The notes beneath the pieces are model-generated. The model saw only the letters and a program-made list of their open reading frames with translations. It was not told the origin of the DNA and searched no databases. From NCBI GenBank assembly GCA_041649175.1, contig JBAZNR010000003.1:207449-271448 (forward strand): a stretch of DNA of 64,000 bases, in the 5' to 3' direction. Source of the stretch: Candidatus Omnitrophota bacterium (GTDB lineage: Bacteria > Omnitrophota > Gorgyraeia > Zapsychrales > JBAZNR01). Both the position numbers and the translations under genes were made by a program. Positions 16,685-37,536 of this stretch are shown piece by piece; the stretch's first letter is position 1, and each line of letters starts with the position of its first letter.

Positions 16685-16691
16685 AAGAATT

Positions 16692-18191
16692 ATGAAAACA
16701 GTAAGCGACATCAGCCAATTCGAATTATTTATAGACGGAAAGAAACAAAAACCGTTATCAGGGCGGTATTTTGACAGCATTAGTCCGTCGACAGGCGAGA
16801 TCGTCGCCAGATTGGCCGATGGTAATGTGGATGACGCGAAAGCGGCTATTGCCGCGGCCAGGCGAGCTTTTGACGCGGGAATTTGGACAAAATGTTCCGT
16901 TCCTGAGCGAGGAAAGTATTTGATTCGCATTGCCGAACTTATTCGGGAGAACGCAAAAGAGCTAGCGCAATTAGAATGCATTGATACCGGAAAGACAATT
17001 AAACAAACAACATTTATTGACGTTCCGACTTGCGCGGATACGTTTGAATATTTTGGAAAAATTGAACAGCCGTTACAGGAGAGCTATTTGGCTGTTGCCG
17101 CGCCGGTCAAAAGCTTGATCCGACGTGAACCCGTTGGTGTTGCGGGTTGTGTTATTCCATGGAATTATCCCTTGATCATGGCGGCTTGGAAAATTGCTCC
17201 GGCATTGGTTTCCGGGAATGCGATCGTTTTTAAGCCGGCACAATTAGCCAGTGTTTCTATTATGCGATTAGCCGAGATCATTGAACATGCCGGATTGCCT
17301 AAGGGTGTTATTAATTTTGTTTCCGGAAGCGGACAAAGTGTGGGAAGCGAGCTAGCACGAAACGCGGATGTGGATATGATAAATTTTACCGGAAGTACGG
17401 CAACGGGTCAGGAAATTATGCGACTCGCCGCCTCCAATACAAAAAAAATCTGTCTGGAGCTCGGCGGCAAGTCGCCGAACATCATTTTCGCCGATTGCGA
17501 CTTAGAAGCAGCCGTGGGTGGGGCTATGTCAGCGATCTTTATGAATCAAGGGCAAATGTGCACGGCAGGTTCGCGGCTTTTATTAGAAGATAAAATTTAT
17601 GATGAATTCATGGCCGCGCTTATCAAAAAAACCAAAGCCTTGAAGATCGGCAACAGTATTAATTACGATACGGATTTTGGTCCACTCATTAGCGCGCAAC
17701 AAAGAGAGCAGGTTTTAAATTTCATTAAGATCGGCATTAAAGAAGGCGCAAAATTATCGTGTGGCGGGAAAATCCCGGAATCAGCTGATTTAAAAAACGG
17801 ATTTTTCTTAGAGCCGGCCATTTTTGAAAATGTGAAGAATTCCATGACGATCGCGCAAGAAGAGATTTTCGGGCCGGTTTTGGCAGTCATAAAATTTTCC
17901 GGCGAAGAGGAAGCCGTAAAAATCGCCAATGATACAAAATACGGCTTAGCCGCATGTGTATGGACAAAAGATCCCCAAAAAGCAAATACGGTCGCGCGCC
18001 AACTTCGTTGCGGGACAGTGTGGATCAATACGTATGGCGGATTTTATAATGAAGCGCCGTTTGGCGGATACAAACAAAGCGGTTTTGGCAGAGAATTAGG
18101 TACCGACGGGCTTTTAGAATACAGCCAAGTCAAACATATTTGCGCTGATCAAACGCCCGGCGGAAGGCCTTTAGTGTCGGGGTGGTTTTGA
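16692..18191 (+). CDS. NAD(P)-dependent aldehyde dehydrogenase
   Basis: ALDH motifs 'VIPWNYPL', 'ELGGKSP', catalytic Cys context 'QGQMCTAGSR', 'EEIFGPV'. The ATG at 16692 is chosen rather than the overlapping upstream start. Confidence 0.8.
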   Translation: MKTVSDISQFELFIDGKKQKPLSGRYFDSISPSTGEIVARLADGNVDDAKAAIAAARRAFDAGIWTKCSVPERGKYLIRIAELIRENAKELAQLECIDTGKTIKQTTFIDVPTCADTFEYFGKIEQPLQESYLAVAAPVKSLIRREPVGVAGCVIPWNYPLIMAAWKIAPALVSGNAIVFKPAQLASVSIMRLAEIIEHAGLPKGVINFVSGSGQSVGSELARNADVDMINFTGSTATGQEIMRLAASNTKKICLELGGKSPNIIFADCDLEAAVGGAMSAIFMNQGQMCTAGSRLLLEDKIYDEFMAALIKKTKALKIGNSINYDTDFGPLISAQQREQVLNFIKIGIKEGAKLSCGGKIPESADLKNGFFLEPAIFENVKNSMTIAQEEIFGPVLAVIKFSGEEEAVKIANDTKYGLAACVWTKDPQKANTVARQLRCGTVWINTYGGFYNEAPFGGYKQSGFGRELGTDGLLEYSQVKHICADQTPGGRPLVSGWF

Positions 18192-18294: not shown

Positions 18295-19776
18295 ATGAAA
18301 GCTTTATTCTTAACACCACCGTTAAAAGCGTGGGATTCCCACGGATTTCATAGAGCGGCCAATCAAATGCACGCGCAATTGGCGGCGTATCTGCGTGAAA
18401 AGAAAATTTGCGATGTGGCGGTTTTAGATTGCCGCGCTTTTGATATGGATTGGGACGGCATGATGAAAAAAGTTGCCGAAATAAAACCTGATTTTGTTTT
18501 TGTCGGCGAACTGCTTCATTCGACTTGCGGTGCTGCCGTTATTTGGTACTTTAATGAGGGCTTACGCCTCATCAAGGAAAAATATCCCAATGTGAAAACA
18601 ATTGCCGGCGGGCTTTGGTATTCCGGAGATTATGAGCGGCAAATGCGCCTTAACCCCACCATTGATTACATTATGCTCGGGGAAGCCGAATTGACTTTAG
18701 AAGAGCTTATCGTCAATATTAAATCCGGAAATAAAAAGAAAGAGCGCGATATTGACGGTTTAGTTTCTCGCGCAGCAGACGGAACGATTGCTCTAGGTCC
18801 GCATCGCGATCTTATTCCCGACTTAAATGTTCTTCCAATGCCGGCTTATGACCTATTCCCGATGGATAAATACGTTGGGCACACATATTGGAAACCGTTC
18901 GCGGAACTGATGACTTCGCGTGGCTGTCCGGGGAAATGCCATTTTTGTTATGAGTGGGCGCTGTATGATTCGCGCACAGCGACGAAAGATTTTACGTCAT
19001 GGCGTGGATTAAAAGGAAAACGTATCGTGGATGAATTAGATATCTTAGAAAAGCAGTACGGAATTACCACGATCGTTTTTCAGGATGATGCTTTTAATAC
19101 CGATACGCAAGCCATGATCGAGTTTTGTGAAGAAAAACTTAAGCGCGGCAATAAAATTGATTGGGTTTGCCTTGGTCGCGCCGACCAGTGGATCGCTCAA
19201 CACGATATTTTGCCTTTGATGAAGAAGGCCGGTTTATTCTTGGCGCTCACAGGTGTTGAGGTTGAAGACGACCTAAGTTTGCACAAAACAGGCAAGGGTG
19301 TGACGATTGATCAAATCAAGAAAACGATCAAGATCTTGCGCGATCAGGATATAGGATCGGTCGGAACAGTTCTGGTCGGCCTTAAAGAAGATACGGAAGC
19401 CAAGATCAAGGAACGCCTTCGCGTGGCGGATGAAATTGATGCGGATATTTTCGCGCTGGATTATCTAACGCCTGTTCCTAATTCGCCCGACTGGCGCTAT
19501 GCCATCAAGAAGGGCTGGTTTGATCCGGACAAGATCGACTTAAGGGTTTGGGATTTTCAGCACCCCGTCATTCCGACGGATTTTCTTTCCATCGAAGAGG
19601 TGGGGCGTTTAGGCGCTTGGTGTATGCGGGAATATTATTCCAAACCGGAACGCATTCATCGCATCATGGACAGCAATTACGATATGAAGGTTAAATTGTG
19701 CGTGAAAGACTTTATGGATAATATTGCCAAATGGGAGAAGAATTCCCGTGTTGGCGCACAAGCGGCTGCTGTTTAA
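18295..19776 (+). CDS. B12-binding-domain radical SAM enzyme (class B)
   Basis: N-terminal cobalamin-binding-like domain and the radical SAM cysteine motif 'CPGKCHFC'; 493 aa. Confidence 0.65.
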   Translation: MKALFLTPPLKAWDSHGFHRAANQMHAQLAAYLREKKICDVAVLDCRAFDMDWDGMMKKVAEIKPDFVFVGELLHSTCGAAVIWYFNEGLRLIKEKYPNVKTIAGGLWYSGDYERQMRLNPTIDYIMLGEAELTLEELIVNIKSGNKKKERDIDGLVSRAADGTIALGPHRDLIPDLNVLPMPAYDLFPMDKYVGHTYWKPFAELMTSRGCPGKCHFCYEWALYDSRTATKDFTSWRGLKGKRIVDELDILEKQYGITTIVFQDDAFNTDTQAMIEFCEEKLKRGNKIDWVCLGRADQWIAQHDILPLMKKAGLFLALTGVEVEDDLSLHKTGKGVTIDQIKKTIKILRDQDIGSVGTVLVGLKEDTEAKIKERLRVADEIDADIFALDYLTPVPNSPDWRYAIKKGWFDPDKIDLRVWDFQHPVIPTDFLSIEEVGRLGAWCMREYYSKPERIHRIMDSNYDMKVKLCVKDFMDNIAKWEKNSRVGAQAAAV

Positions 19777-19799
19777 AAAAGAATCAAAACGGAAAGAAT

Positions 19800-20075
19800 A
19801 TGATGAATAGCCAAGAGCAAGTTATCTGGGAAGATGAGTCGTTAAAGAAGTTCAATAAAATGATCGCGCGCATTCCACTTTTTCATCGGGAGATCGCGCG
19901 TAAAGTTGCTTTTAAAAAAGCAGAGTTAAACGCGAAAGAACGCGGCTCAAAAAAGGTTGAAGAGCCCGACATTATCAAGGCGTTTTTCTCGGAAGTTCCA
20001 ATGACATTTTATAGCTTGATGATCAAACTTTTAGAAGACGCGGGTTTTGATTATAAGCGTTATGTGGCGAAGTAA
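19800..20075 (+). CDS. Small protein with a PCP_red-like domain (often paired with B12-rSAM/BchE-type enzymes)
   Basis: About 90 aa helical protein beginning MMNSQEQ with SD 'ggaaag'; similarity to PCP_red recalled from memory only. Confidence 0.3.
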   Translation: MMNSQEQVIWEDESLKKFNKMIARIPLFHREIARKVAFKKAELNAKERGSKKVEEPDIIKAFFSEVPMTFYSLMIKLLEDAGFDYKRYVAK

Positions 20076-20526
20076 GTTGGAACTTAATCATCACTCTATT
20101 TTTATTTCGGCGCCGATCGATGCGGTTGGCGCACAAATTGTTCTTTGGGGCGAGGCGTCGTGGTGGCCCAAAAGATGTTCGATGAAATTTATTCCCGAAG
20201 ACGGTGGGGAAATTAAAGTCGGAAAAAAATTTAAGCAAAAAGTTTTATTTCCCTCAGCGCCAAGCTGGACGGTTTGCGTGACCAGGCTTATTTTAAATCG
20301 GGAGATCGAACGCACATTTTTAGACGGGATCTTTAGCGGAAAAGAAACCGTGACGACAAAAAATGTTGCGCAAGGAACACAAGTTGATTATGTAATGGAT
20401 TTCAAGATCAACGGAAGTTTCAATCAAGTTTTGTGGCGAATTATTTTTCGGCGGCTTCATGACCGTAATATTAAGCTGATCTTGAGAAGTTTAAAAGATT
20501 TTATGGAAAAAAAGAGTTTGAAATGA
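20047..20526 (+). CDS. Hypothetical protein, possibly SRPBCC (Bet v1-like) fold
   Basis: About 155 aa with a beta-rich pattern; weak; overlaps the preceding ORF. Confidence 0.3.
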   Translation: MIISVMWRSKLELNHHSIFISAPIDAVGAQIVLWGEASWWPKRCSMKFIPEDGGEIKVGKKFKQKVLFPSAPSWTVCVTRLILNREIERTFLDGIFSGKETVTTKNVAQGTQVDYVMDFKINGSFNQVLWRIIFRRLHDRNIKLILRSLKDFMEKKSLK

Positions 20527-21524
20527 TAATTGCGGTTATTGGAGCGGGGGCGATCGGTTCGGTGGTAGCGGCTTATTTGCATAAAACGGGAGTTGATGTT
20601 GTTCTCGTCGGCCGCGAAAACCAAGTGAATGCCATCAAACGGTCGGGTTTGAAGATAAACGGTGTGCGCGGCGAAGAAATATTTCGCGTTCCGGCATTAA
20701 CACGTTTAGATAAAAAATATGATCTAACGATCTTTACGGTTAAAACCCAAGACCTAGAAGATGCTTACGCGCAAAATAGTGAGTTTCTTTTAGAAAATTC
20801 TTTAATTCTTTCTACTCAAAACGGTGTTCAGGCGGACAATATTTTAAGCGGCCATTTTGAGAAAGAGAATATGCTCAGCAGTATTGTGATGTTTGGCGCG
20901 ACGTATATTGAGCCGGGTGTTGTTACTTTTAATTTTGAAGGCGATTGGATCTTAGGAAAGCCGTTTATTTCGGTGGACAAAGAAGTTCGCGATATTGCCG
21001 AGATCCTAAAGAAAGCATTTACGGTCGCGGTCTCGACGAATATCGTCGGGATGAAATGGCTTAAACTTTTTGTCAATTTCAATAATTGTCTTCCGGCTTT
21101 GATCGGAAAATCTATGCAAGAAACTTTTACCGATATGGATTTTTGTAAATTAAGCGTCATGCTTCTTAAAGAAGGTATCGCGGTCACAGAAAAAGTCGGC
21201 ATAGAACTTGTATCTTTACCGTCTTTTCCGGCGGAAAGAATTTTTGGATTGACCAAAATGCCCTTAGACCAAGCGGCGGGCATCATGAATAAAACCTTAA
21301 CCGGTTTAAGCAAAGAGCCTTTATACGGCTCCATCTTGCAGAGCATCTTGCGTCAAAAGGCAAGCGAGATCGATTTTATTAATGGGGAAGTTGTTTTATT
21401 AGGAAAACAAGTCCAATCAATGGCGCCATTAAACTTGAAAGTTGTTGATCTTGTCCATAGGGTTGAGCGTGAGCGGCGTTTTTTTACACCGGAAGAAATA
21501 AAGAAAGAATTTAGTCTAAATTAA
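20523..21524 (+). CDS. 2-dehydropantoate 2-reductase family (ApbA/PanE) NAD(P)H oxidoreductase
   Basis: Rossmann motif 'IAVIGAGAIGSVVAAYL'; ApbA-like length and C-terminal helical domain. Confidence 0.6.
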   Translation: MIIAVIGAGAIGSVVAAYLHKTGVDVVLVGRENQVNAIKRSGLKINGVRGEEIFRVPALTRLDKKYDLTIFTVKTQDLEDAYAQNSEFLLENSLILSTQNGVQADNILSGHFEKENMLSSIVMFGATYIEPGVVTFNFEGDWILGKPFISVDKEVRDIAEILKKAFTVAVSTNIVGMKWLKLFVNFNNCLPALIGKSMQETFTDMDFCKLSVMLLKEGIAVTEKVGIELVSLPSFPAERIFGLTKMPLDQAAGIMNKTLTGLSKEPLYGSILQSILRQKASEIDFINGEVVLLGKQVQSMAPLNLKVVDLVHRVERERRFFTPEEIKKEFSLN

Positions 21525-21554
21525 AAAACATCATCGATCGGAGAATTGTCCTTA

Positions 21555-22817
21555 ATGGAAAAACGAAGAGTTGTGATAACGGGAGTTGGGATCGTTTCGC
21601 CTAATGGCGTCGGAAAAGAAGCGTGTTGGAAGGGGATGATCAACGGCGTTTCAGCGATAAAACGCGTGACAGAATTTGATGTCTCCATGTTCAATACCAA
21701 GATCGCCGCGCAAGCTAGGGATTTTGATCCGCTAAAATTAGGGCTCACATCAGATGAGGCAATTCGCATGGACCGGTATGTGCAATTTGCTATGGTCGGC
21801 GCGCGGATGGCCTTAGAAGACGCCAAATTAGACTTAAGCAAAGTTAATCGTGAGCGTATGGGCGTTTCTTTAGCGAACGCGATCTGCGGAACAAAATATA
21901 TGGAAGAAGAATTCGCGCTGGTGACCGATAACGGAAAAAATCCTATTAATCCGGCGATGGTTCGCCCGCATCTTTATGACGCTTCCATGTTCAATACGCC
22001 TTCTAGCGAAATTTCTACCAAATATAATTTAATGGGAATTTGTAATACGATCTCAACCGGGTGTACCGCCGGAACCGATTCGGTGGGATTTTCTTTTGAA
22101 GCCATTCAAGACGGAGAAGTTGATGTCATGATCGCGGGTGCCAGCGAAGCGCCGATCACGCCCATCACTTTTGGCGCTTTTGACGTGGTCAATGTCCTGT
22201 CGGTCCATAATGATGAACCGGAAAAAGCATCGCGCCCTTTTGACTCGAAACGAAACGGCTTTGTCATTTCCGAGGGTTGCGGGCTTGTTATCTTGGAAGA
22301 ATTAAATCACGCGTTAAAACGTGGAGCAAAAATTTATTGCGAAGTGGTTGGTTTTGGTACGACCTGTAACGCCTATCATATGACCGACTTGCCTGCGGAA
22401 GGCGAGGCCATGACGGATTCCATTAATTTAGCCATGGAAGATGCGGGCATTAAACCTAGAGATATTGACTATATTAACGCGCACGGTTCATCGACAAAAC
22501 AAAATGATGTTTTTGAAACCAATGCCTACAAAGCATCGCTGGGCGAATATGCTTACAAAATTCCTATCAGTTCTTTAAAGTCCATGATCGGCCACCCCCT
22601 CGCCGGCGCTAATGGCGTTGAGATCGCGGTTTGCGCGCTTATTTTTGAGCGTAATATTTTACCGCCGACGATCAATCAAGAATCTCCTGACCCGCAGTGT
22701 GATCTGGATTATGTTCCCAATGTGGCACGCGAAAAGAAAATAAACTGTATGCTAAAAACAAGTTCCGGATTTTCCGGCGTTCATTCTTCGATGGTTTTTA
22801 GGAGGTATAATGAATAA
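21555..22817 (+). CDS. Beta-ketoacyl synthase, active KS (KS-alpha-like)
   Basis: Active-site Cys 'ISTGCTAGTDSVG'; His motifs 'INAHGSSTKQND' and 'SMIGHPLAGANG'; SD 'ggagaa' upstream. Confidence 0.8.
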   Translation: MEKRRVVITGVGIVSPNGVGKEACWKGMINGVSAIKRVTEFDVSMFNTKIAAQARDFDPLKLGLTSDEAIRMDRYVQFAMVGARMALEDAKLDLSKVNRERMGVSLANAICGTKYMEEEFALVTDNGKNPINPAMVRPHLYDASMFNTPSSEISTKYNLMGICNTISTGCTAGTDSVGFSFEAIQDGEVDVMIAGASEAPITPITFGAFDVVNVLSVHNDEPEKASRPFDSKRNGFVISEGCGLVILEELNHALKRGAKIYCEVVGFGTTCNAYHMTDLPAEGEAMTDSINLAMEDAGIKPRDIDYINAHGSSTKQNDVFETNAYKASLGEYAYKIPISSLKSMIGHPLAGANGVEIAVCALIFERNILPPTINQESPDPQCDLDYVPNVAREKKINCMLKTSSGFSGVHSSMVFRRYNE

Positions 22818-24057
22818 GATAGCCATTACAGGCCTGGGGATCGTATCTCCCAGTGGAATTGATAAGCGAATTTTCTGGTCTAATTTAAAGGCCGGTAAAT
22901 CAACGGTAGGACGCATTGAACGCTTTGACGCGTCGCTTTATCCGTCGCATGTGGCGGGGCAAGTTCATGAATTAGACGCCTATAGCCACGTGTCTTCGCG
23001 CCTTTTAAAGAAGATCGATCTTTTTTCGCATATGGCGCTGGTAGCTTCCGAAATGGCTATCAAAGACGCGCATTTGGATCTTACGAAAGAAAATTTAAAA
23101 CGTGCCGGAATTTTTATGGGAAATGCCATCGGCGGCTGGTTGTATGCCGAAACAGAATTGCGGGATCTATATATTGAAGGCCGTGAAGGGGTGAGTCCTT
23201 TTATGGCTTCCGCGTGGTTTCCGGCGGCGCCGCAAGGGCAAATTTCCATTAACTACGGAATTAAAGGTTACAGCAAAACGGTTGTTGCGGATCGGGCAAG
23301 TTCTTCTATGGCTATTGCTTATGCCGCGAAGAATCTCGTTCACGATAGGAATGATTTTATTTTAGCCGGCGGCATGGAAGCTCCGGTAACGCCTTACGGA
23401 CTTTTATGCTGTAATACGTCGGGTGTTTTAACGAGGCGTAATGATTTGCCACATAGTGCTTATCGTCCGTTTGATAAAACGCGTGACGGGTTGGCGATCG
23501 GTGAGGGGGCTGGCGTTGTTATTTTAGAACGCCCCGAGCGCGCGCAAAAAAGAAATGCCAGAACGTATGCCTACATTACCGGCTACGGAACGACAACAGA
23601 TGGCGTCAATAGAATTGAACCTGCCGCCGATGGTGTTCAGCTAGCGCGGGCTATTTCTATGGCGCTGGATGATGCCGGTTTAGAGCCGAAACAAATTGAT
23701 TATATTTGCGCCGACGGATCAGCAACACAGATCGGCGATATTAGTGAAACAAGGGCTATCAAAAAAGTGTTTAACGGTTACGCGAAGAAAATTCCTGTTT
23801 CCGCGCCGAAGTCTATGTTCGGAAATCTTTTAGGCGCTTCAGGCGCGGCGGATGTGATCGCGACGATCTTAGCCATGCGCTATGGAACTGTTCCTCCGAC
23901 GATCAACTATGAAACACCGGACCCAGAGTGCGATTTAGATTATTGTCCTAATAAAGCGCAAGCTAAAGAAATTAAAAACGCGCTGGTGATCTCTCGCGGG
24001 CGGGGCGGAATTAATACGGCGTTGGTTTTAGAAAAGAACAAGGAGCAGAAGCCATGA
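22810..24057 (+). CDS. Beta-ketoacyl synthase homolog lacking the active-site Cys and His (CLF/KS-beta-like partner)
   Basis: KS fold throughout, but the Cys position reads 'VADRASSSMAIA' and the His motif is replaced by 'ICADGSATQIGD'; translationally coupled to the upstream KS by an ATGA overlap. Confidence 0.7.
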   Translation: MNKIAITGLGIVSPSGIDKRIFWSNLKAGKSTVGRIERFDASLYPSHVAGQVHELDAYSHVSSRLLKKIDLFSHMALVASEMAIKDAHLDLTKENLKRAGIFMGNAIGGWLYAETELRDLYIEGREGVSPFMASAWFPAAPQGQISINYGIKGYSKTVVADRASSSMAIAYAAKNLVHDRNDFILAGGMEAPVTPYGLLCCNTSGVLTRRNDLPHSAYRPFDKTRDGLAIGEGAGVVILERPERAQKRNARTYAYITGYGTTTDGVNRIEPAADGVQLARAISMALDDAGLEPKQIDYICADGSATQIGDISETRAIKKVFNGYAKKIPVSAPKSMFGNLLGASGAADVIATILAMRYGTVPPTINYETPDPECDLDYCPNKAQAKEIKNALVISRGRGGINTALVLEKNKEQKP

Positions 24058-24248
24058 AAAAATTATATCGTTCAGAAACAGATAAGAAAATAGCCGGTGT
24101 TTGCGGCGGCCTTAGCGAATACTTTGACATTGACCCGGTGATCTTTCGCATTCTTTTTGCGGCATTGTTTTTTGTGGGTGGGTTTGGGCTTTTGCTTTAT
24201 ATCATCATGTGGTTTGCGGTTCATTCAAAATCAAATATAAAAAATTAA
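24054..24248 (+). CDS. PspC-domain small membrane protein
   Basis: 'IAGVCGGLSEYFDIDPVIFRILF' is a canonical PspC motif, followed by one TM segment. Confidence 0.6.
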   Translation: MKKLYRSETDKKIAGVCGGLSEYFDIDPVIFRILFAALFFVGGFGLLLYIIMWFAVHSKSNIKN

Positions 24249-24278
24249 AACACAAATTGCTTAAAAGAGGAGAGAAAG

Positions 24279-24536
24279 ATGTCAATAGAAGCAAGTGCCT
24301 TAACGGCAGAGCAAAGAGTTAAGAATATTCTCAAAAAAGTTTTGGATATTGACCCCAGCGAAGTTAAGTCGGATGCGAAACTTGACCAATCGTTGGGAAT
24401 TGATTCAACCGAGATGGTGGAGATTTCCGTCGGAGTCAAGAAGGAATTTAATGTTCCCATTGCCGATAACGAGATCAAAAAGACTTTTTCGGTGAATGAT
24501 ATTCTTAATGTCCTAAAAACAAAAGGCATAAAATAG
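24279..24536 (+). CDS. Acyl carrier protein
   Basis: 85 aa with 'LGIDSTEMVEI' around the phosphopantetheine-Ser; SD 'agaggagag'. Confidence 0.75.
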   Translation: MSIEASALTAEQRVKNILKKVLDIDPSEVKSDAKLDQSLGIDSTEMVEISVGVKKEFNVPIADNEIKKTFSVNDILNVLKTKGIK

Positions 24537-24540
24537 CTAT

Positions 24541-24600
24541 CAGCCTTCAGTCTTCAGCTTTCAGCAGCTGATGACTGATGACTGATGACTGAAAGCTGGA
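24541..24600. repeat. Composite palindrome: 10-bp stem cagctttcag/ctgaaagctg enclosing a (atgactg)x3 tandem, with ttcag heptad repeats on the left
   Basis: Read directly from the sequence; a related core agctttcag...ctgaaagct is at 50549-50580. Confidence 0.7.
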
Positions 24601-24602
24601 AA

Positions 24603-25406
24603 ATGAAAATCATCGACCTTAGCCTTCCCATTGATGACAGTTTGAAAGAAACGCATGCGGCCACCATTGAGCGTATTGCGCACAAAGCGGGCGTTGAGCA
24701 TTTTAACTGGGTGGTGATGAAAAACCAACCCGGCGGCGAAGAACGTTTTAATAAAGGCGAACGCGTCGCAACACCTCAGGAAATTCCTGACGGCGAAATG
24801 CTTTCCTTAGAGATCGTTAATTCTTCCGTGCATATGGGCTCGCACGTGGATGCGCCGTTTCATTATGGCTCAACCTGCGAAGGGAAGCCTTCCAAGCAAA
24901 TTATGGATATTCCGCTGGAATGGTGCATAGGCCCCGGCGTTGTTTTGGACTTCTCTCATTTGAAATTTCCTGATTTTATTGACAAAGAAAAAATTGTGGC
25001 AGCGCTTAAAAAAATCAGTTATACACTTAAAAAAGGCGACATCGTTCTTTTGCGCACCGACGGAGATAAGCTTTTGGGCACAGATGATTACGTTAATAAA
25101 TACGTCGGATGCGTTCCTAGCGCTATTGAATATCTTTTAGATAACGGCATCAAGATGATGGGCATTGATACGATCGGTTTAGATCGTCCATGCTTTTTAA
25201 TGTTCAAAGAATTTTTAACAACGAAAGACAAAAGCAAGATTTGGCCGTGCCACTTTTTAGGCCGCAAGAGGGAATATTGCCATATGGAACGTCTGGGGAA
25301 TTTAAAAGCAATTCCCAAGCCTTTTGGATTTACTGTTTCTTGTTTGCCGGTAAAAGTTAAGAACGCAGGCGCAGGTTGGTGCCGCGCTATTGCGTTATTA
25401 GAATAG
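24603..25406 (+). CDS. Cyclase-family protein (PF04199-like; kynurenine formamidase / polyketide cyclase family)
   Basis: 'HMGSHVDAPFHY' metal-binding motif, 'LLRTDGD', 'GIDTIGLD'; the ATG at 24603 is preferred. Confidence 0.65.
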   Translation: MKIIDLSLPIDDSLKETHAATIERIAHKAGVEHFNWVVMKNQPGGEERFNKGERVATPQEIPDGEMLSLEIVNSSVHMGSHVDAPFHYGSTCEGKPSKQIMDIPLEWCIGPGVVLDFSHLKFPDFIDKEKIVAALKKISYTLKKGDIVLLRTDGDKLLGTDDYVNKYVGCVPSAIEYLLDNGIKMMGIDTIGLDRPCFLMFKEFLTTKDKSKIWPCHFLGRKREYCHMERLGNLKAIPKPFGFTVSCLPVKVKNAGAGWCRAIALLE

Positions 25407-25432
25407 TAAGCAGCGCGGCACCAACCCCCGCG
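25375..25432. terminator. Hairpin with 15-bp perfect stem ggttggtgccgcgct/agcgcggcaccaacc, followed by a second small hairpin tgatttac-gaa-gtaaatca
   Basis: Read directly from the sequence; the left arm overlaps the last codons of the cyclase gene. Confidence 0.5.
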
Positions 25433-25532
25433 CTTTGATTTACGAAGTAAATCAGCAGGGGGATGAAGTAGAGTAGTTGTGATCATTGATTAAAGATAAA
25501 GCCGTTTAAACGAAACACGTGGGGGTACGAAA

Positions 25533-26453
25533 ATGCTAAAACAATATAAGATCATCGAGCATAAACTTGTTGAAAGTGAAGAGGGTGGCTGTCCGGTTTT
25601 AGTTTATGTCTGTCCGGATGAGAAAGAAAGAAAGCATCTGGTGGAAGAACTAAAAATTGACGAGCATAACGTCCATTCCGCCTTAGACCCTAATGAGTTG
25701 TCCCGTGTGGAGTTTGACGAAAATCATGCCGTTGTTATCATTAAGCGCCCAAAACGATATTCGTCCGAAGATAATTTTATTTTCAAGATCTCATCCATTG
25801 GTTTATTCATTTTTCCGGATAAATTAGTCGTCATTCGAGCCGAAGATGCCGCTATCTTTGACGCGCGTGAATTTCAAAAGATACAGACCATTCAAGATGT
25901 TGTTTTGCGCATTATTCGACGCTGTATCTTACATTTTGAAGAGCATTTACACGTTTTGCAGGCGATCTCCGATGAGTTGGAAGAGAAGATCAACCAATCC
26001 ATGGAAAATAAACAACTGCATAATATGTTCGGGCTAGAAAAAAGCCTGGTGTATTACTTAAAAGCCATTAGCTCCAATTCCAGGGCGATTGAGAAGCTGA
26101 AAGTTAATACGGCAAAATTAAATTTCAATACCGACAATGTGGAATACTTAGACGATCTCGCTATCGAAAACAGCCAATGTTACGAACAGGCGAATACCTA
26201 TTCTCAGGTTCTTTCCAGTCTTATGGATGCCCGGGTTTCTATCGTCAGCAATAACTTGAATATTTTGATTAAAAAGTTAACTTTTGTCATGATCAGCATT
26301 ATGGTTCCGACGCTTATCATTAGCGCGTTTTCCATGAATGTTAAGCTTCCTATGGATCAAGAGCATTCCATGATCCCGTTTTGGATCATTATGAGCTTGT
26401 CTATTGTTGCCGGTGCGGCGGTTTATTTGATCTGGAGATTTAAAAAACTTTAA
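25533..26453 (+). CDS. CorA-like divalent cation channel (variant SMN motif)
   Basis: Cytoplasmic domain plus two C-terminal TM segments, with 'FSMNVKLP' at the CorA GMN position. Confidence 0.6.
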   Translation: MLKQYKIIEHKLVESEEGGCPVLVYVCPDEKERKHLVEELKIDEHNVHSALDPNELSRVEFDENHAVVIIKRPKRYSSEDNFIFKISSIGLFIFPDKLVVIRAEDAAIFDAREFQKIQTIQDVVLRIIRRCILHFEEHLHVLQAISDELEEKINQSMENKQLHNMFGLEKSLVYYLKAISSNSRAIEKLKVNTAKLNFNTDNVEYLDDLAIENSQCYEQANTYSQVLSSLMDARVSIVSNNLNILIKKLTFVMISIMVPTLIISAFSMNVKLPMDQEHSMIPFWIIMSLSIVAGAAVYLIWRFKKL

Positions 26454-26480
26454 ATTTGTTACAAGCGAAAGGACGAATAC

Positions 26481-26981
26481 ATGGCAACGACAAGAAATTC
26501 AATTGTGATCAATGCGCCTTACAGTTTGGTTTTTGACATCTCCAATAAGATCGAACGCTGGACGGAACTTTTTGGCAAAGAATATGTCAAAGCCGAAGTG
26601 TTGGAGCGCAAGGGAAATGAGATCACCTTTCGGCTTACCGACGATGAGAATAAAAGCTGGGTTTCCAAGCGCTGGCTGGATAAGGAACATAAATTCGCGG
26701 TCGCTTCGCGCCATGAGCCGATGTTTCCGTTTAAATATATGAAGATCGTCTGGTTTTATATTGAAACGCCGGAAGGAATAGAAATGATCTGGGTTCAGGA
26801 TTTTGAAATGGATCCTAAATTCACTAAATTTACTTCAGAGCAGATCGCAGGATTTATTAATCAGCACTCGCAGCATAATTTGAAAATCTTTAAGAAAGTG
26901 ATTGAAGATGAAGCGAAGTTGTCCCGACGCGACGACGTTTCATCGTCGGTCGGGATGCCGACTTCAACTAAAAAGCATTAA
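26481..26981 (+). CDS. SRPBCC-superfamily polyketide cyclase/dehydrase-like protein
   Basis: About 165 aa; N-terminal 'IVINAPYSLVFDISNKIERWTELF' matches the start of Polyketide_cyc2/TcmN-type aromatase-cyclases. Confidence 0.55.
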   Translation: MATTRNSIVINAPYSLVFDISNKIERWTELFGKEYVKAEVLERKGNEITFRLTDDENKSWVSKRWLDKEHKFAVASRHEPMFPFKYMKIVWFYIETPEGIEMIWVQDFEMDPKFTKFTSEQIAGFINQHSQHNLKIFKKVIEDEAKLSRRDDVSSSVGMPTSTKKH

Positions 26982-27115
26982 AAAAACGTCGGCAAAAAAG
27001 AGGCCTCTCAATTAGCGACAAAAAAATAATCTTCATTTCTTTATGTCTGGGTAATATTGCCGTTTCTTTCAATAACGGCGCTGTTGCCGCCGCCATTCCC
27101 ACCATCGCGCAAAGT

Positions 27116-28189
27116 TTGAACCTTTCCGATATTACGGTTGCAAGGGTCGTTCCGTTTTACATGATCCCTTATGGCTTAGGAGCTCTGCTTTACGCGCCGC
27201 TCACGCGTTTTTTTTCCTATCGGCTAACTTTACTGATGGCGATGATCGTTTATGCGATCGCGAGTTTGGCAGCGGGATTGAGCCAATCGCTTAATTTCAT
27301 GCTTTTTTCGCTTGTGGCAGCCGGGGCAGCCGGGGCCAGCTCAACACCGTTAAGCTTAATGTTGATCGGCGATCTTTTTGAGAAAAATATCCGCGGACGG
27401 ATGATCGGAGGATTTTTTGGATTAAGTTTTCTTTCGTCATTGGCCGGAATGATCGTGATGGGTATTTTTGATTGGCGCTGGCTTTTTTTTGTTCCGGCGG
27501 TCGTTGCGGCCATCAACGCTTTATCCTGGGCGGCCTTAAACCAAAAACTTTTAAACTCCTGCCATCAGAAAAATATCAATTATATTACCGCGTTTTTAAA
27601 GCCTGATATCCGCAACATTTTTATTTTTATTTTCATTACCAGCTTTTTATATCATGGCGTGCAAAAATGGTACGGTGTTTATCTTTCGCAGGAATACGGC
27701 TTTGGCAAAGAGCTGGTGAGCTTTGTCCTTATTGCCGCCGCGCTTTGCGGGCTTTTGGGCCAGCAGATCGGCGGATTTTTATCGGATAAACGGGGAAGGT
27801 TATTCGCCTGCTACACAGGGCTAGCTATTTTGGCGGTTGGTATTATGCTTTTATCCGGGCATTATCCGTTCGCGCTTTTGACGTTTGTTTTAGGCCTGAT
27901 CACGATCGGCTGGACGGTGTGCCATAATTCGGTTTCCACTATTCTTACCGATTTTCCCGATGAAGACCGTCCGATCATGGCCAGCCTTAATTCCGGCGTG
28001 CGCTTTGTCAGCGGCGGTTTAGGATTTTCTTTGAGTAAATATTTTGTGGAGAAAAGTTTTAGCTTAACATTTTTAGCATTTGGTGCTTTAATATTCTTAT
28101 TAATATTCTACGTAAAATTGATATTAGAGCGAAGCGTTATCAAAAATGAAACAACACATGACATCATTGGAGGGGAATTGAATGGATAA
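27116..28189 (+). CDS. MFS transporter (true N-terminus probably about 35 codons upstream at a non-canonical start)
   Basis: Hydrophobic helices throughout. The in-frame upstream sequence encodes a typical MFS TM1 (...IIFISLCLGNIAVSFNNGAVAAAIPTIAQSL...) but contains no ATG/GTG/TTG. Confidence 0.55.
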   Translation: MNLSDITVARVVPFYMIPYGLGALLYAPLTRFFSYRLTLLMAMIVYAIASLAAGLSQSLNFMLFSLVAAGAAGASSTPLSLMLIGDLFEKNIRGRMIGGFFGLSFLSSLAGMIVMGIFDWRWLFFVPAVVAAINALSWAALNQKLLNSCHQKNINYITAFLKPDIRNIFIFIFITSFLYHGVQKWYGVYLSQEYGFGKELVSFVLIAAALCGLLGQQIGGFLSDKRGRLFACYTGLAILAVGIMLLSGHYPFALLTFVLGLITIGWTVCHNSVSTILTDFPDEDRPIMASLNSGVRFVSGGLGFSLSKYFVEKSFSLTFLAFGALIFLLIFYVKLILERSVIKNETTHDIIGGELNG

Positions 28190-28955
28190 TTTGAAAGGAA
28201 AAACGGCGGTGATCACCGGGGCTAGTCGCGGCATAGGAAAGGCGATCGCGCTGCGATTGGCGGAAAAAGGAATTAATCTCGTGTTGGCCGCGCGCACCAA
28301 AGACACTTTGGATGAGGCGGTTAAGGATATTAAAGCCAAAACCGGCGTTAAAGTGATCGGAGTTCCGACGGATGTGGCCAAGCTCGAGGATCTAAAAAAT
28401 TTAACCGAAGCCGCTTATAAAGAGTTTAAAGTTGTGGATATTTTGGTCAATTGCGCCGGAGTTTCCAGTCAATTTCCGTTTGAAAAACAACCCATAGAAG
28501 ACATGGAAAAACTCGCGCATACCAATTATTTGGGCTATGTGCGGCTTATCCGTTTACTTATTCCGCAAATGATCGAGCGCAAAAAAGGTTCCATTATCAG
28601 CGTCGTGTCGGGTTCAACACTGGTAGATCCGATCCCGCGCACGTTTTTAACGTATAGTTCTTTAAAAGTGGGCTTACGCGCTTTTTTAAAAGGATTGTTT
28701 TGGGAAATGCGCGATCACGGAATCAAGGTCACATCCATTTTGCCCGGTGTGGTGGATAGCGACTTAACGGGGCATTTGCAAGATATTGCCAAAGAGCAAA
28801 AAGATCGTTTGATGTCGCCCTCTGCTGTGGCTGATATGGTGGAATACGCGCTGTCCGTTCCGGAAAATGCCTGCCCGCTGGAATTAGCGGTCATCAATCA
28901 GCAAACGCCGTGGACGAAGCCAGTCATAGACTACAAACAACAACAGGCGAAATAA
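28182..28955 (+). CDS. Short-chain dehydrogenase/reductase (ketoreductase-like)
   Basis: 'TGASRGIGKAIA' Rossmann motif; the YxxxK context has Y replaced ('SSLKVGLRA'); 'NCAG'; 257 aa. Confidence 0.7.
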   Translation: MDNLKGKTAVITGASRGIGKAIALRLAEKGINLVLAARTKDTLDEAVKDIKAKTGVKVIGVPTDVAKLEDLKNLTEAAYKEFKVVDILVNCAGVSSQFPFEKQPIEDMEKLAHTNYLGYVRLIRLLIPQMIERKKGSIISVVSGSTLVDPIPRTFLTYSSLKVGLRAFLKGLFWEMRDHGIKVTSILPGVVDSDLTGHLQDIAKEQKDRLMSPSAVADMVEYALSVPENACPLELAVINQQTPWTKPVIDYKQQQAK

Positions 28956-28956: not shown

Positions 28957-29328
28957 ATGATGATGCGAAATATTTTCTTAAGTATTTTCCTTATTGTAAA
29001 TAGCGGTTGTGCGGCGGCCATTGTTGGCGGCGCGGCCGTGGGCGCTGTTGCGGTTTCCCAGGATTTTGCCACCACCTCGGTGGATGTCAATTACAAAAGA
29101 GCCTGGAGCATTGCTAATGAACAATTAAAAAAGATCGGGGAAGCGAAGCGCACATTCCAAAAGATCGGCGAGATCAATGCCATCGTGGAAGGCTCAACCG
29201 TGCGCGTGAAGATCTCAAAGCTGACCGAGCGCACCGTAGATATAAAGGTGTCCGCTCGAAAAAATATGCTGCCGAATACAGAACTGGCGCAGACGATTCT
29301 TGCGGCAATTCTACGTAAACTTCAATGA
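28957..29328 (+). CDS. Lipoprotein, hypothetical
   Basis: Lipobox 'VNSGC'. Confidence 0.45.
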   Translation: MMMRNIFLSIFLIVNSGCAAAIVGGAAVGAVAVSQDFATTSVDVNYKRAWSIANEQLKKIGEAKRTFQKIGEINAIVEGSTVRVKISKLTERTVDIKVSARKNMLPNTELAQTILAAILRKLQ

Positions 29329-29332
29329 GCAA

Positions 29333-29600
29333 GCCCAGCACTAATTTTGCCATGTATTATGTATACGTATTAAGAAGCAAAGCTGACAACCAATTGTACT
29401 ACGGCTATACCAATAATATCGAAAGGCGATTTGCGGAACACAATATAGATTTTGAATGGGATTTGATTTATTATGAAGCTTTCTTCTCTGAAAAAGATGC
29501 GCGGTTACGAGAGCGAAAGCTAAAAGATTATGGGCAATCAAGAACTCATCTTAAAAATAGAATTCAACATTCTTTGAAAAGACAAAATTAGTGCTGGGCA
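29333..29600. repeat. Pair of perfect 16-bp inverted repeats (gcccagcactaatttt / aaaattagtgctgggc) bracketing the GIY-YIG ORF; identical to the rrn terminator stem arms
   Basis: Left arm 29333-29348, right arm 29584-29599; the same arms form the hairpin at 37731-37770. Confidence 0.85.
29352..29591 (+). CDS. Small GIY-YIG nuclease-family protein (COG2827/UPF0213-like)
   Basis: 'YYVYVLRS...QLYYGYTNNIERRFAEHN' GIY-YIG motif; about 80 aa; the ATG at 29352 is preferred. Confidence 0.75.
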   Translation: MYYVYVLRSKADNQLYYGYTNNIERRFAEHNIDFEWDLIYYEAFFSEKDARLRERKLKDYGQSRTHLKNRIQHSLKRQN

Positions 29601-29630: not shown

Positions 29631-29864
29631 ATGGACAAAACAGTTAAGGTTTTTAAGAAAAACAAGTTTCAGGAAATTCGCGTTGGGATCAGGGAATTTA
29701 AGGGCAATGATTTGATCGACATCCGCACCTGGACGCAAACGCAAGGAACCGAAGAAATGGTTCCCACCGCCAAAGGTGTGTCGCTTAACATCAGCCTTTT
29801 AAACGAACTCAAAGACGCGCTGGTGCAGGTTGAGAAGGAATTAAAAGAAAGCAGAATGATTTAA
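29631..29864 (+). CDS. PC4-like transcriptional coactivator / ssDNA-binding protein (YdbC-like)
   Basis: 'EIRVGIREFKGNDLIDIRTWTQTQGTEEMVPTAKGVSLNISLLNEL' matches the bacterial PC4 pattern. Confidence 0.55.
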   Translation: MDKTVKVFKKNKFQEIRVGIREFKGNDLIDIRTWTQTQGTEEMVPTAKGVSLNISLLNELKDALVQVEKELKESRMI

Positions 29865-31178: not shown

Positions 31179-32096
31179 ATGCTAAAAATCATCGACTCAC
31201 ATTCCCATTGTATTCCCCTCGAAGTTGCGCAGAAGACTGCTTTTTTTAAAGTTGGTTGGTCGGATGCGGATAAGCAATTGGCGGCGATGGATGAACAGGG
31301 CATCGCGAGGTCGCTTCTTTTGTATCCAACGAGCGATGCCCATATTCAAATGGGCGGATGGAAAAACCTGGCGGAAGCTTATAATGCCGGTATCGCCAAA
31401 ATCGTTAAGCAACATTCCGATCGGTTTATCGGTGCCGGAATATTAGCGATCGATAATGAAAAAAATCTTTCCGAAAGCTTAAAGCAATTTTCCGATTACG
31501 GCTTTCCGGTTATTTCACTTGCGTCGAGCTATGAAGGGAAGTATTTGGATGAAGGGATTTTTTTCGCTGTGTATGAATATGCCGCGGCGAAAAAAATCCC
31601 TATTCATATTCATCCGCAAATTATGAATCCTATCGGCGAAGACCGCGTGCGCGACCCGCTTCTTTCTCCGGTTCTTGAATATGTTTTTGATGTTTCCATG
31701 TGTATCGGAAAACTGATGATGAGTGGGACATTTTTGAAATTTCCTTCCGTGAAATTTATCTTCGCGCATTACGGCGGCGTCCTTCCTTTAGTTAAAGAAC
31801 GTTTTGATAATACTTATTTAATGCTTCGCAAAAGAGAATTTGTTAAAGATTTGGGAAAAGTTCCCAGCGAATATTTAAAAAATATTTATTTTGATACCAG
31901 CGGCTCCAAATCGCTTGCGTCACTTTTATGCGCGCTGGAAGTAACTGATGCTTCGCATATTTTATGGGGAAGTGATCATCCGGCCAATCAAAATACAAAA
32001 GCTTCCATTGATGCGATTTTGGCTTCACAAATCTCATCTTCGGATAAAGAAAAAATTCTTTCTCAGAATATTTTAAGCTTACTTTCGCGCTCTTAA
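31179..32096 (+). CDS. Amidohydrolase-2 family metal-dependent hydrolase (TIM barrel)
   Basis: N-terminal 'IIDSHSHCIP', internal 'IHIHP', 'FAHYGG', C-terminal 'WGSDHP' metal ligand pattern. Confidence 0.6.
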   Translation: MLKIIDSHSHCIPLEVAQKTAFFKVGWSDADKQLAAMDEQGIARSLLLYPTSDAHIQMGGWKNLAEAYNAGIAKIVKQHSDRFIGAGILAIDNEKNLSESLKQFSDYGFPVISLASSYEGKYLDEGIFFAVYEYAAAKKIPIHIHPQIMNPIGEDRVRDPLLSPVLEYVFDVSMCIGKLMMSGTFLKFPSVKFIFAHYGGVLPLVKERFDNTYLMLRKREFVKDLGKVPSEYLKNIYFDTSGSKSLASLLCALEVTDASHILWGSDHPANQNTKASIDAILASQISSSDKEKILSQNILSLLSRS

Positions 32097-32182
32097 AAAC
32101 CGCTTATTTTCTCCTCGAGAAATTTTCTTTTAAGTCCCTAAGTCATTGATTTGCCTATCATTTAAATTTCGGTAAATATTTC

Positions 32183-32211
32183 TTGACAAAATTAGGATGT
32201 TCTGTTATTTT
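32183..32211 (+). promoter_or_regulatory. Putative rrn promoter with an AT-rich UP-like element
   Basis: TTGACA, 17 nt, TATTTT, preceded by tttaaatttcggtaaatattt. Confidence 0.4.
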
Positions 32212-32371
32212 TGTTGAACCTCGTAAGACATCTTATCTTTTGGGGCGTTCTTCAAGTTCTTAAAAAAATATTTAGAATCTTTTGGAATGAAATTTAAAAA
32301 AGACATTCCTTTTTTTGCGAGTGTCTTATTTTTTCGTTCTTTCTCATCTTGTTGTCATTTTAAAGCCAAGT

Positions 32372-33941
<1,570 letters not shown>

Positions 33942-34183: not shown

Positions 34184-34291
34184 TGATTTTTGTTTGCAGT
34201 GCAAACAAAAATCACTCCGAGAGAGCGATAGCGACCGAGGAGCAACCATTAAAGATATTCGTGATAGAATATTTAATCTTATGGAATTCAC

Positions 34292-34560: not shown

Positions 34561-37536
<2,976 letters not shown>

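Follow-up and report, generated by a model that had tools for sequence, protein, structure and literature searches.

The window analysed here is a 64-kb stretch (64,000 nucleotides) of contig JBAZNR010000003.1 from a Candidatus Omnitrophota bacterium, and its subject is a biosynthetic locus that an earlier note on this DNA had placed at 19800–28955 and described as resembling a polyketide synthase (PKS) of type II. Proteins of the window were profiled against Pfam and NCBIfam, and related structures were sought among the sequences of the Protein Data Bank (PDB). The genes of the PKS region all lie on the + strand in close packing. Two ketosynthase (KS) genes are followed by genes for an acyl carrier protein (ACP), a PF04199-type cyclase, an SRPBCC aromatase/cyclase (ARO/CYC), and transport and reductase functions, and are preceded by an ApbA-family reductase, a further SRPBCC protein, and a B12-binding radical SAM (S-adenosylmethionine) enzyme (B12-rSAM) with a small partner. 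Each gene named in the earlier note was found, always on the + strand. Its downstream genes are present, but in the actual order cyclase–CorA–SRPBCC–MFS–SDR, and the B12-rSAM gene is real but located at 18295–19776, outside the span of that note.

KS1 (21546–22817, +; PF00109/PF02801) and KS2 (22810–24057, +; two ketoacyl-synthase domains, KS fold) are adjacent, and judging from an 8-nt overlap of the KS1 stop with the KS2 start and an AGGAGG 5 nt upstream of the KS2 ATG, KS2 is translationally coupled to KS1. In a MAFFT alignment of 27 sequences, comprising among others E. coli FabF and FabB, seven FabF-like proteins, two Streptomyces pairs of a KS-alpha with its chain-length factor (CLF, KS-beta), and six non-actinomycete pairs, KS1 displays Cys, His, and His at FabF positions 164, 304, and 341, embedded in the motifs STGCTAG, AYHMT, and AHGSST. 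KS2 carries Arg at the position of Cys164, Asp at His304, and Asn at His341, and has no Cys on proper alignment. This confirms the coupled, adjacent pair of the earlier note, with a Cys-His-His triad in the first member and neither active-site Cys nor His in the second. The top PDB match of KS1 is the actinorhodin KS-alpha (1tqy_A, 401 bits), followed by AntD (377 bits), while every FabF scores lower; against Iga11 (6kxd) and AmcF, KS1 reaches 219 and 143 bits. Moreover, KS1 contains the KS-alpha signatures STGCT.G.D, NA(Y/F)HMT, AHGS, and SGF.G. KS2 in turn shows derived CLF states, namely a non-Cys residue preceded by an acidic one, (F/C)AD at the first His, APK in place of S(S/T)xK, and RG.GG in place of GFGG, of which APK and RG.GG are common to KS2 and the Streptomyces CLFs. 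The best PDB matches of KS2 are FabFs, which score higher overall and first suggested an independently degenerated FabF; this origin is overruled by the shared derived CLF motifs. In bootstrapped neighbour-joining (NJ) trees, KS1 falls into the KS-alpha clade and KS2 into the CLF clade, each with 100% support, and neither branches within FabF/FabB, as the refutation test in the earlier note would have required. The joint KS-alpha and CLF clade, to the exclusion of the FabFs, has a bootstrap value of 97%, or 81% once the third KS of the window is added. FabF-model scores of 466.5 (KS1) and 410.4 bits (KS2) pass the PRK07314 subfamily cut-off but miss that of the FabF equivalog (493.75). The sequence evidence identifies KS1 as a catalytic KS-alpha and KS2 as a catalytically dead CLF. 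The Arg at the Cys position is also present in the CLFs of Desulfobacterota, Clostridium, Ktedonobacter, and Bacillus, and Gln occurs only in the two Streptomyces CLFs; within this alignment, Arg marks a non-actinomycete CLF subgroup.

Relatives of KS2 were collected by an exhaustive search of 50%-identity representatives. The family is distinct, with one cluster at 60% identity (metagenome-assembled genomes (MAGs) of Desulfobacterota) and the next stand-alone proteins at 40–47%. Seven of the eight relatives fetched display an (A/S)DRAS-like motif. Cluster look-up provided two named relatives, a CLF-like protein of Clostridium beijerinckii/C. puniceum and the CLF of Ktedonobacter racemifer. 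The loci of the relatives share KS–CLF–ACP–PF04199–SRPBCC, frequently together with Amidohydro_2 and ApbA genes. Loci outside Omnitrophota additionally encode, beside KS/CLF, a Cys-rich domain of about 80 residues (CxxGxKxGD...GFCxGAYHxLFP...CPDGG; no Pfam hit on record), which is duplicated in Desulfobacterota (8029–8619 of locus L047), split in locus L036 (1179–1448 and 1600–1851), and occurs as an ACP fusion in C. beijerinckii (L039, 11260–11787); the window has no counterpart.

Conservation was assessed on 26 species-level Omnitrophota loci from a genome scan and on the best 80 of 511 relatives from a metagenome scan, which leave 97 distinct loci after de-duplication; locus counts given below as fractions denote membership between anchor genes. 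The ACP gene (24279–24536; PF00550, E 7.6e-9) is present in 77/77 loci and encodes the Ser in a GIDSTE motif, confirming the discrete ACP that the earlier note had placed behind the KS pair. The protein stays under every AcpP cut-off (e.g. TIGR00517, 47.2 versus 70.45), and sequence comparison shows it to be a dedicated ACP distinct from the housekeeping AcpP. No acyltransferase gene is found in the PKS operon, and malonyl-ACP is likely supplied in trans by the housekeeping malonyl-CoA:ACP transacylase FabD (52556–53485, +; TIGR00128, 333.7 bits versus a cut-off of 260.9). FabD belongs to a second KS-bearing set, plsX–fabH–fabD–FabZ-like–KS3 (50596–55246), in which fabH and fabD each pass their TIGR models and neither fabG nor acpP lies between fabD and the KS gene. 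KS3 is a Cys-His-His KS and groups in the NJ tree with a FabF-like protein of Verrucomicrobiota (92%), outside the PKS clades. It reads DAFEMT where DAYHMT is expected and scores 422.8 bits against the FabF equivalog cut-off of 493.75; both KS3 and the FabZ-like protein give sub-threshold matches to the cispentacin models AmcF and AmcE, respectively.

The two cyclases are invariant members of the locus. The PF04199 protein (24585–25406; E 7.5e-29; 61/61 loci) has an intact HxGxHxDxPxH motif (VHMGSHVDAPFH) and is 41–47% identical to the cyclases of type II PKS loci in Clostridium, Ktedonobacter, and Bacillus. Its solved relatives are isatin hydrolases and kynurenine formamidases only. It is predicted to be an OxyN-type polyketide cyclase that retains the functional residues of the family. 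The SRPBCC protein at 26481–26981 (PF03364/PF10604; 53/53 loci) is assigned as a TcmN-type mono-domain ARO/CYC: its top match is TcmN ARO/CYC (98 bits, E 4e-27), with ZhuI and WhiE next, and it keeps the TcmN pocket residues W28, F32, Y35, W65, S67, R69, R82, M91, W95, W108, Q110, and N136, but not W63. One deposited TcmN chain differs from the other chains solely by an Ala at the Arg69 position, which suggests that Arg69 has been probed experimentally. Thus, both the PF04199 cyclase and the aromatase/cyclase of the earlier note are borne out and keep their family residues, and after the refutation tests proposed there had been run, the type II PKS interpretation stands unrefuted. A second, accessory SRPBCC protein further upstream (Polyketide_cyc2-like, here SRPBCC1; 20047–20526) is weak when taken alone (PF10604, E 0.014) but gains support at the family level, since three of nine orthologues match PF10604 (best E 1.8e-8). 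SRPBCC1 is detected in 21/55 loci, and its family profile has no match among PDB sequences.

Several putative tailoring enzymes flank this core. Directly upstream of KS1 lies the ApbA/PanE-family NAD(P)H oxidoreductase (20523–21524; PF02558/PF08546; TIGR00745, 167 bits versus a cut-off of 141), whose presence, like that of the MFS exporter, agrees with the earlier note. It occurs in 55/55 loci, and in the non-Omnitrophota loci L036, L037, and L047 it likewise immediately precedes the KS pair. The B12-rSAM (PF02310 and PF04055; BchE/HpnJ-like) contains CxxxCxxC in its translation but scores far under every equivalog cut-off, with 175.8 bits versus 481 for BchE, 130 bits for HpnJ, and 69.6 versus 360 for the ladderane-type model TIGR04072. 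It is found in 51/55 loci, is relocated in two, and has a 57% identical orthologue in L047. Its small partner (19731–20075, probable start ~19797; 55/55 loci, with an orthologue in L037) is present as described, but the proposed PCP_red assignment is sub-threshold (PF08369, E 0.009, 16.5 bits versus 32.5), and DUF2621 fits better (PF11084, E 1.5e-7).

Downstream of the ARO/CYC gene, a probable MFS exporter (27116–28189; PF07690, E 3.6e-39) occurs in 44/53 loci and also follows ARO/CYC in L047. The classical SDR oxidoreductase (28182–28955; PF00106, E 2.6e-49) is present in 42/42 Omnitrophota loci. For this protein, the ketoreductase label of the earlier note holds only in a generic sense: an act-type C-9 ketoreductase was considered and rejected on the basis of generic PDB matches, 30% identity to the Streptomyces C-9 ketoreductases, and its absence from L036, L039, L047, and L049. 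A small PC4-like protein (29631–29864; PF02229, E 8e-15; 31/42 loci) is a frequent passenger between the SDR and the terminal Amidohydro_2 gene (31179–32096; PF04909, E 2.9e-20). The latter encodes a protein resembling non-oxidative aromatic-acid decarboxylases, with LigW, ACMSD, and the gamma-resorcylate, 2,3-dihydroxybenzoate, and salicylate decarboxylases as best PDB matches; Amidohydro_2 genes are also found at the L036, L039, and L047 loci.

The CorA-like channel (25533–26453; PF01544), listed in the earlier note as part of the locus, is present here but is not a conserved member: it occurs in 2/53 comparable loci, and other loci have unrelated cargo at the same position. The gap between cyclase and ARO/CYC (25406–26481 in the window) ranges from 0.1 to 5.7 kb and is a hot spot for insertions, occupied elsewhere for instance at 6400–9940 in L002, 7300–11276 in L003, 13300–18227 in L009, and 11600–13100 in L017. 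Judged by eye, the cargo of these other loci resembles nucleotidyltransferase/HEPN-type toxin–antitoxin pairs, a ~600-residue ATPase-like protein, and other unrelated open reading frames (ORFs). GIY-YIG, DUF3568, and orf417 were likewise rejected as members, being lineage-specific (1/42, 2/42, and 0/42 loci). The GIY-YIG ORF (88 aa, 29325–29591) occupies other intergenic sites in L001 (~11360) and L006 (~17355) and thus changes its operon position between genomes, as a mobile element would.

Taken together with its upstream flank, the locus forms an operon of roughly 18 genes at ~11975–32096, larger than the span of the earlier note. It additionally includes an acyl ligase, a phosphorylase, two IF-2B-family genes, an aldolase–SCP2 fusion, an aldehyde dehydrogenase (ALDH), and the decarboxylase-like protein, and it has the B12-rSAM gene within the unit. 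The order (PadR)–ligase–PNP–IF2B–IF2B'–aldolase/SCP2–ALDH–B12rSAM–DUF2621–(SRPBCC1)–ApbA–KS–CLF–ACP–cyclase–[insertions]–ARO/CYC–MFS–SDR–(PC4)–Amidohydro_2 recurs in the 97 distinct loci, far above chance. KS2 orthologues across these loci are 66–81% identical. Where full-length 16S rRNA genes are 86.8–91.3% identical to that of the window, KS1 is 78–85% identical. The operon looks vertically inherited in Omnitrophota, its order being nearly unchanged across the 97 loci recovered. At its downstream end, Amidohydro_2 lies directly upstream of the 16S rRNA gene in the same direction (31179–33940), the first gene of a complete rRNA operon (32372–37723) with tRNA-Ile and tRNA-Ala in the spacer. 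This position next to the rRNA operon is the usual one: Amidohydro_2 is followed by 16S in at least 30 Omnitrophota loci (e.g. L005, L013, L064, L066, L092, L093, L097, L102, and L112), but not in a more divergent lineage with ~67% identical KS2 (L116, L123, L125–L128). Nine of the MAGs (L001–L004, L008, L009, L020, L021, and L026) are deposited as "uncultured Planctomycetales bacterium"; their operon is of the Omnitrophota type, with 73–81% identical KS2 and the same synteny, and the label is probably a taxonomic misassignment within the PVC group.

Outside the phylum, the Desulfobacterota locus with 60% identical KS2 has the order MMPL–DUF1329–B12rSAM–AFOR–ApbA–x–KS–CLF–ACP–cyclase–ARO/CYC–MFS–AFOR–Amidohydro_2–flavoprotein–PNP–IF2B–IF2B'–aldolase/SCP2. 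The phosphorylase, both IF-2B genes, and the aldolase–SCP2 fusion are thus found beside the PKS here too, but downstream instead of upstream, and a ferredoxin-dependent aldehyde oxidoreductase (AFOR) takes the place of ALDH. A third lineage (L036/L037) carries SRPBCC1-like and DUF2621-like genes together with AFOR, ApbA, KS, CLF, ACP, cyclase, ARO/CYC, and Amidohydro_2.

The upstream genes, all on the + strand, start with an AMP-forming acyl-CoA (or acyl-ACP) ligase (11975–13498; PF00501/PF13193), which scores 466.8 bits against the 476 cut-off of the long-chain-fatty-acid-CoA ligase model PRK06187, overlaps the next gene, and precedes the PNP gene in every locus with enough flank. A PadR-family protein (11335–11850, +; PF03551, E 3e-11), a possible operon regulator, lies upstream of the ligase in both loci whose flank extends there (L022 and L075). 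The gap between the two contains a sigma-70-like promoter match (TTGACA-16-TAAAAT, 11911–11938, +), a consensus match only, yet with 11 of 12 positions the top one in 10.5–30.4 kb. The ligase is followed by a PNP_UDP_1 nucleoside phosphorylase/nucleosidase (13479–14231; PF01048, E 2e-34; under all NCBIfam cut-offs), which is also present in L047, and by an MtnA-like sugar-1-phosphate isomerase of the IF-2B family (14235–15203; PF01008, E 1e-49; 34/34 loci) that reaches 186.1 bits against the TIGR00524 cut-off of 185.85 and stays under the cut-offs of the MtnA models. A second, truncated IF-2B-family gene (15148–15675, true start uncertain; PF01008, E 4e-8) covers only the C-terminal half of the fold (model positions 130–270 of 280); it follows the MtnA-like gene in 34/34 loci, and the L047 copy encodes 148 aa (20243–20689). 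The class II aldolase (15650–16684; PF00596 with a C-terminal PF02036 SCP2 fusion; 34/34 loci) keeps the equivalents of E. coli FucA Glu73, His92, His94, and His155 and thereby an intact metal site, and the same fusion is found in L047 (20878 onward). The module ends with a non-acylating ALDH (16632–18191; PF00171, E 4e-177; BADH-like, 599 bits, under the cut-off), which is replaced by AFOR in L047 and L037.

A phosphorylase (or kinase), an MtnA-like isomerase, and a FucA-like aldolase constitute the dihydroxyacetone phosphate (DHAP) shunt, or 5-deoxyribose disposal set (PMC6079011), which converts 5'-deoxyadenosine into DHAP and acetaldehyde (PMC6079011; PMC12632272). Phosphorylase, isomerase, and aldolase steps are also used by Streptomyces cattleya to convert 5'-fluorodeoxyadenosine into fluoroacetaldehyde (PMC6079011). 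The window has all that defines this shunt, with clustered phosphorylase, MtnA-like isomerase, and FucA-like aldolase with its metal site. The module most likely converts 5'-deoxyadenosine or methylthioadenosine, both by-products of SAM, into DHAP and a C2 acid. From its conserved co-location with the PKS genes, we infer a functional tie between the two. A role solely in detoxifying the by-product of the B12-rSAM is weakened by four loci that have no rSAM but retain phosphorylase, isomerase, and aldolase.

We consider it probable, with good though not full confidence, that the locus encodes a genuine ancestral-type, non-actinomycete type II aromatic PKS within a long, co-directional, vertically inherited Omnitrophota operon. 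This supports the type II PKS assignment of the earlier note and, among the three chemistries offered there, favours an aromatic polyketide. In the proposed pathway, FabD would load malonate onto the ACP, and the KS1/KS2 heterodimer would extend a poly-beta-keto chain without reduction, with the CLF tunnel setting its length. The TcmN-type protein would fold the chain and aromatise the first ring or rings, and the PF04199 enzyme would close a later ring. Subsequently, the Amidohydro_2 protein could take the terminal carboxyl group off the released aromatic acid, while the ApbA-type reductase, the SDR, and the B12-rSAM would tailor the scaffold without O2 before export by the MFS transporter. 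Conservation to this degree points to an aromatic compound of physiological importance (for instance a pigment, a redox-active compound, or a molecule used in interactions) more than to an antibiotic that could be dispensed with. Lipid-export genes in the loci of relatives (MMPL, DUF1329, LolA-like, and MacB), together with the SCP2 domain and the fatty-acyl-CoA-ligase-like enzyme, hint at a hydrophobic, envelope-associated product.

Several observations weigh against this interpretation or narrow it. The NJ trees, comprising 27–28 sequences, were calculated without highly reducing type II KS/CLF pairs and without ApeO/ApeC. Gln at the CLF position matching the KS active-site Cys is a hallmark of actinomycete CLFs and is linked to decarboxylative priming; KS2 has Arg there instead, and priming may therefore differ. 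The Arg gives no ground for exclusion, since the non-actinomycete subgroup includes the CLF of clostrubin-producing clostridia. No phosphopantetheinyl transferase (PPTase) or KSIII gene is found in the PKS operon, and no ACPS/PPTase among the scanned ORFs of the 64-kb window. The SDR, a generic one, has no counterpart in the non-Omnitrophota relatives. As the four loci without B12-rSAM keep the salvage module, the latter is not simply an rSAM helper. Finally, the extended unit is found beyond the phylum only in one Desulfobacterota lineage (L047, L048, L051, and L052, with identical arrangement) and, partially, in L036/L037, and a gene neighbourhood kept within a single phylum could be a matter of frozen synteny and not of shared function.

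This last point bears on how far the unit extends. With a real PKS core, the genes from ligase to ALDH and the rRNA operon could be mere neighbours, leaving a unit of ~18.3–32.1 kb instead of 12–32 kb; we regard this narrower delimitation as a serious possibility, though one that we would not bet on. Phosphorylase, MtnA-like isomerase, and class II aldolase are known from many phyla as a salvage cluster standing on its own (PMC6079011), the trio persists in the four loci without B12-rSAM, and a frozen gene order within a phylum can arise from vertical inheritance alone. However, the phosphorylase, the MtnA-like isomerase, the unusual second IF-2B gene, and the aldolase–SCP2 fusion all accompany the Desulfobacterota PKS on its other side, an aldehyde-oxidising enzyme (ALDH or AFOR) occurs alongside the PKS in three lineages, and the genes of the window overlap or abut without terminator-sized gaps. 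At the opposite extreme, the whole operon may represent one integrated, phylum-defining pathway leading from a SAM by-product via an activated C2 starter to a membrane-associated aromatic with the status of primary metabolism, which we consider unlikely. Speculatively, phosphorylase, isomerase, aldolase–SCP2, ALDH, and ligase would then make the C2 starter of the type II PKS, with 5'-deoxyadenosine giving rise to an acetyl and methylthioadenosine to a methylthioacetyl starter. The BchE-like B12-rSAM would perform an O2-independent oxygenation, methylation, or C–C coupling, and the product, possibly quinone-like, might serve anaerobic nanobacteria as a redox carrier, an oxidative-stress shield, or a host-interaction factor.

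Two further explanations concern the KS proteins themselves. A highly reducing or lipid-type system (aryl-polyene, ishigamide-like, or ladderane-like) that makes a membrane-bound reduced chain would agree with the B12-rSAM, the SDR, the fatty-acyl-CoA-ligase-like enzyme, and the SCP2 lipid-binding domain of the locus, with the MMPL, DUF1329, LolA-like, and MacB genes in relatives' loci, a set characteristic of envelope lipid export, and with a Cariaco Basin study in which antiSMASH called "ladderane" clusters in Omnitrophota MAGs (PMC9902471). We nevertheless find it improbable to a high degree. The operon ORFs include neither a dehydratase nor an enoyl reductase, and KS1 scores far higher against the aromatic actinorhodin KS-alpha than against Iga11 or AmcF, which speaks against the aryl-polyene option of the earlier note; its ladderane-like option is contradicted by the rSAM score of 69.6 bits against the ladderane-type cut-off of 360. 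Further, the OxyN-type cyclase and the TcmN-type ARO/CYC, whose pocket is intact, belong to the invariant members, and the nearest named relatives come from producers of aromatic polyphenols. The Cariaco Basin "ladderane" clusters may be this PKS locus. If KS1 and KS2 were housekeeping condensing enzymes of the FabF type, their very high conservation across the phylum, their FabF-model scores above the PRK07314 cut-off, and the FabFs among the best PDB matches of KS2 would be explained. Yet both proteins remain under the equivalog cut-off, KS2 lacks all three catalytic residues, the pair falls into the KS-alpha and CLF clades apart from FabFs, the PKS ACP misses every AcpP cut-off, and the window has its own plsX–fabH–fabD–FabZ-like–KS3 set, in which the Cys-His-His enzyme KS3 groups with a FabF-like protein. 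The probability that we assign to this explanation is close to nil.

The aromatic type II PKS reading bears on a phylum for which such systems are barely documented. Candidatus Omnitrophica is one of the 14 phyla represented in a catalogue of 6,322 CLFs from 2023, where it falls into a non-actinomycete clade that is mostly uncharacterised (PMC10132072). A search of the catalogue's supplements for "Omnitrophica" gave no details, and a literature search combining Omnitrophota and ketosynthase yielded no paper linking them in the collection searched. As Omnitrophica appears in the catalogue only as a phylum name, it was fair of the earlier note to call the locus poorly described.

As a rule, type II PKSs are antibiotic or pigment clusters of actinomycetes that occur sporadically and move horizontally; here, a system of the ancestral type would be fixed in a phylum of very small, uncultured bacteria. 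The constant order in the 97 loci, the 78–85% identity of KS-alpha, and the usual adjacency to the rRNA operon suggest a product integral to the way of life of Omnitrophota. Pairing of the PKS with a B12-rSAM, a decarboxylase-like protein, and a salvage module hints at O2-free tailoring of aromatic polyketides, which is little explored. In addition, the KS/CLF/ACP trio and the two cyclases constitute a clonable target, and the proteins may be useful for engineering, since E. coli has served as an expression host for KS/CLFs from non-actinomycetes. If loci of such a composition, with KS and B12-rSAM, are what antiSMASH called "ladderane" in Omnitrophota MAGs, that label would be misleading.

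Other parts of the window contain additional features. Directly downstream of the 5S rRNA gene, 37967–43032 encodes a MarR regulator, an OEP outer-membrane efflux protein, and an AcrB-type RND pump, whose presence confirms a diderm envelope; OEP and the RND pump could provide an export route. A c-di-GMP-I-GGC riboswitch (6318–6411; 62.3 bits, gathering score 59) is located upstream of a subtilase-family (Peptidase_S8) gene (6527–7279). The stretch 56000–60000 has a low GC content (0.35–0.39 versus ~0.43) and encodes an amine-oxidase-type flavoprotein (56872–58293) and a fatty-acyl-reductase-like NAD_binding_4 protein (58301–59386). The amine oxidase was considered as a displaced version of the L036/L047 flavoprotein and rejected, as it matches neither the L047 flavoprotein nor the L036 orthologue; to the other amine oxidase of L036 it is only 26% identical.

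Comparison with the actinorhodin system (PDB 1TQY) and other Streptomyces pairs reveals the same heterodimer logic, the KS-alpha motifs, and the CLF motifs APK, (F/C)AD, and RG.GG. In contrast, KS1 is only 47% and KS2 only 34–36% identical to the Streptomyces proteins, the CLF carries Arg for Gln, and the window has neither a di-domain ARO/CYC nor an act-type C-9 ketoreductase.

The similarity to the locus of an anaerobic, clostrubin-producing Clostridium is closer. KS2 is 45–46% identical to its CLF (WP_077837155; ClrB by inference from PMC7693217), and both share (A/S)DRAS with Arg at the Cys position. The clostridial KS is 48–50% identical to KS1, and the PF04199 cyclase (46%), the TcmN-like SRPBCC protein (43%), and Amidohydro_2 (32%) are shared as well. 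The Clostridium locus differs in encoding PPTases of its own together with a KSIII, FrsA-like hydrolases, an ABC exporter, and an ACP that carries the Cys-rich domain as a fusion, whereas B12-rSAM, ApbA, SDR, DUF2621, and the phosphorylase/isomerase/aldolase/ALDH module are absent from it.

The ancestral type II PKS architecture is given in the literature as KS–CLF–ACP–TcmN–OxyN, with clostridial CLFs in an early-diverging clade (PMC7693217). The window has the same KS–CLF–ACP with TcmN-type and OxyN-type enzymes as the den (dendrubin), ant (AQ-256), and pcy clusters and that of Ktedonobacter racemifer (PMC7693217). Identities to the Ktedonobacter proteins, whose KS/CLF pair has been expressed in E. 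coli (bioRxiv 10.1101/2020.05.18.102780; PMC6638757), amount to 41–42% for CLF, 50–51% for KS, 41% for the cyclase, and 40% for ARO/CYC. The den, ant, and pcy clusters have a duplicated TcmN–TcmN arrangement, whereas Omnitrophota have one TcmN-type protein and, in some lineages, a divergent second SRPBCC protein. Moreover, these ancestral-type clusters carry tailoring enzymes of the O2 era (FAD monooxygenases, cupins, and SAM methyltransferases), in place of which the Omnitrophota locus has the B12-rSAM, the ApbA reductase, and the decarboxylase-like protein.

The upstream module resembles the DHAP shunt (DrdK/DrdI/DrdA) in its phosphorylase, MtnA-like isomerase, and FucA-like aldolase with metal site, and here an aldehyde dehydrogenase gene comes after the aldolase gene. 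It differs by the aldolase–SCP2 fusion, the constant second, truncated IF-2B gene, the ligase in front, and the PKS setting. Overall, the minimal PKS core is of a known type, and what is new is that the operon is extended and fixed, combines anaerobic-style tailoring with a salvage module, and is conserved vertically across the phylum.

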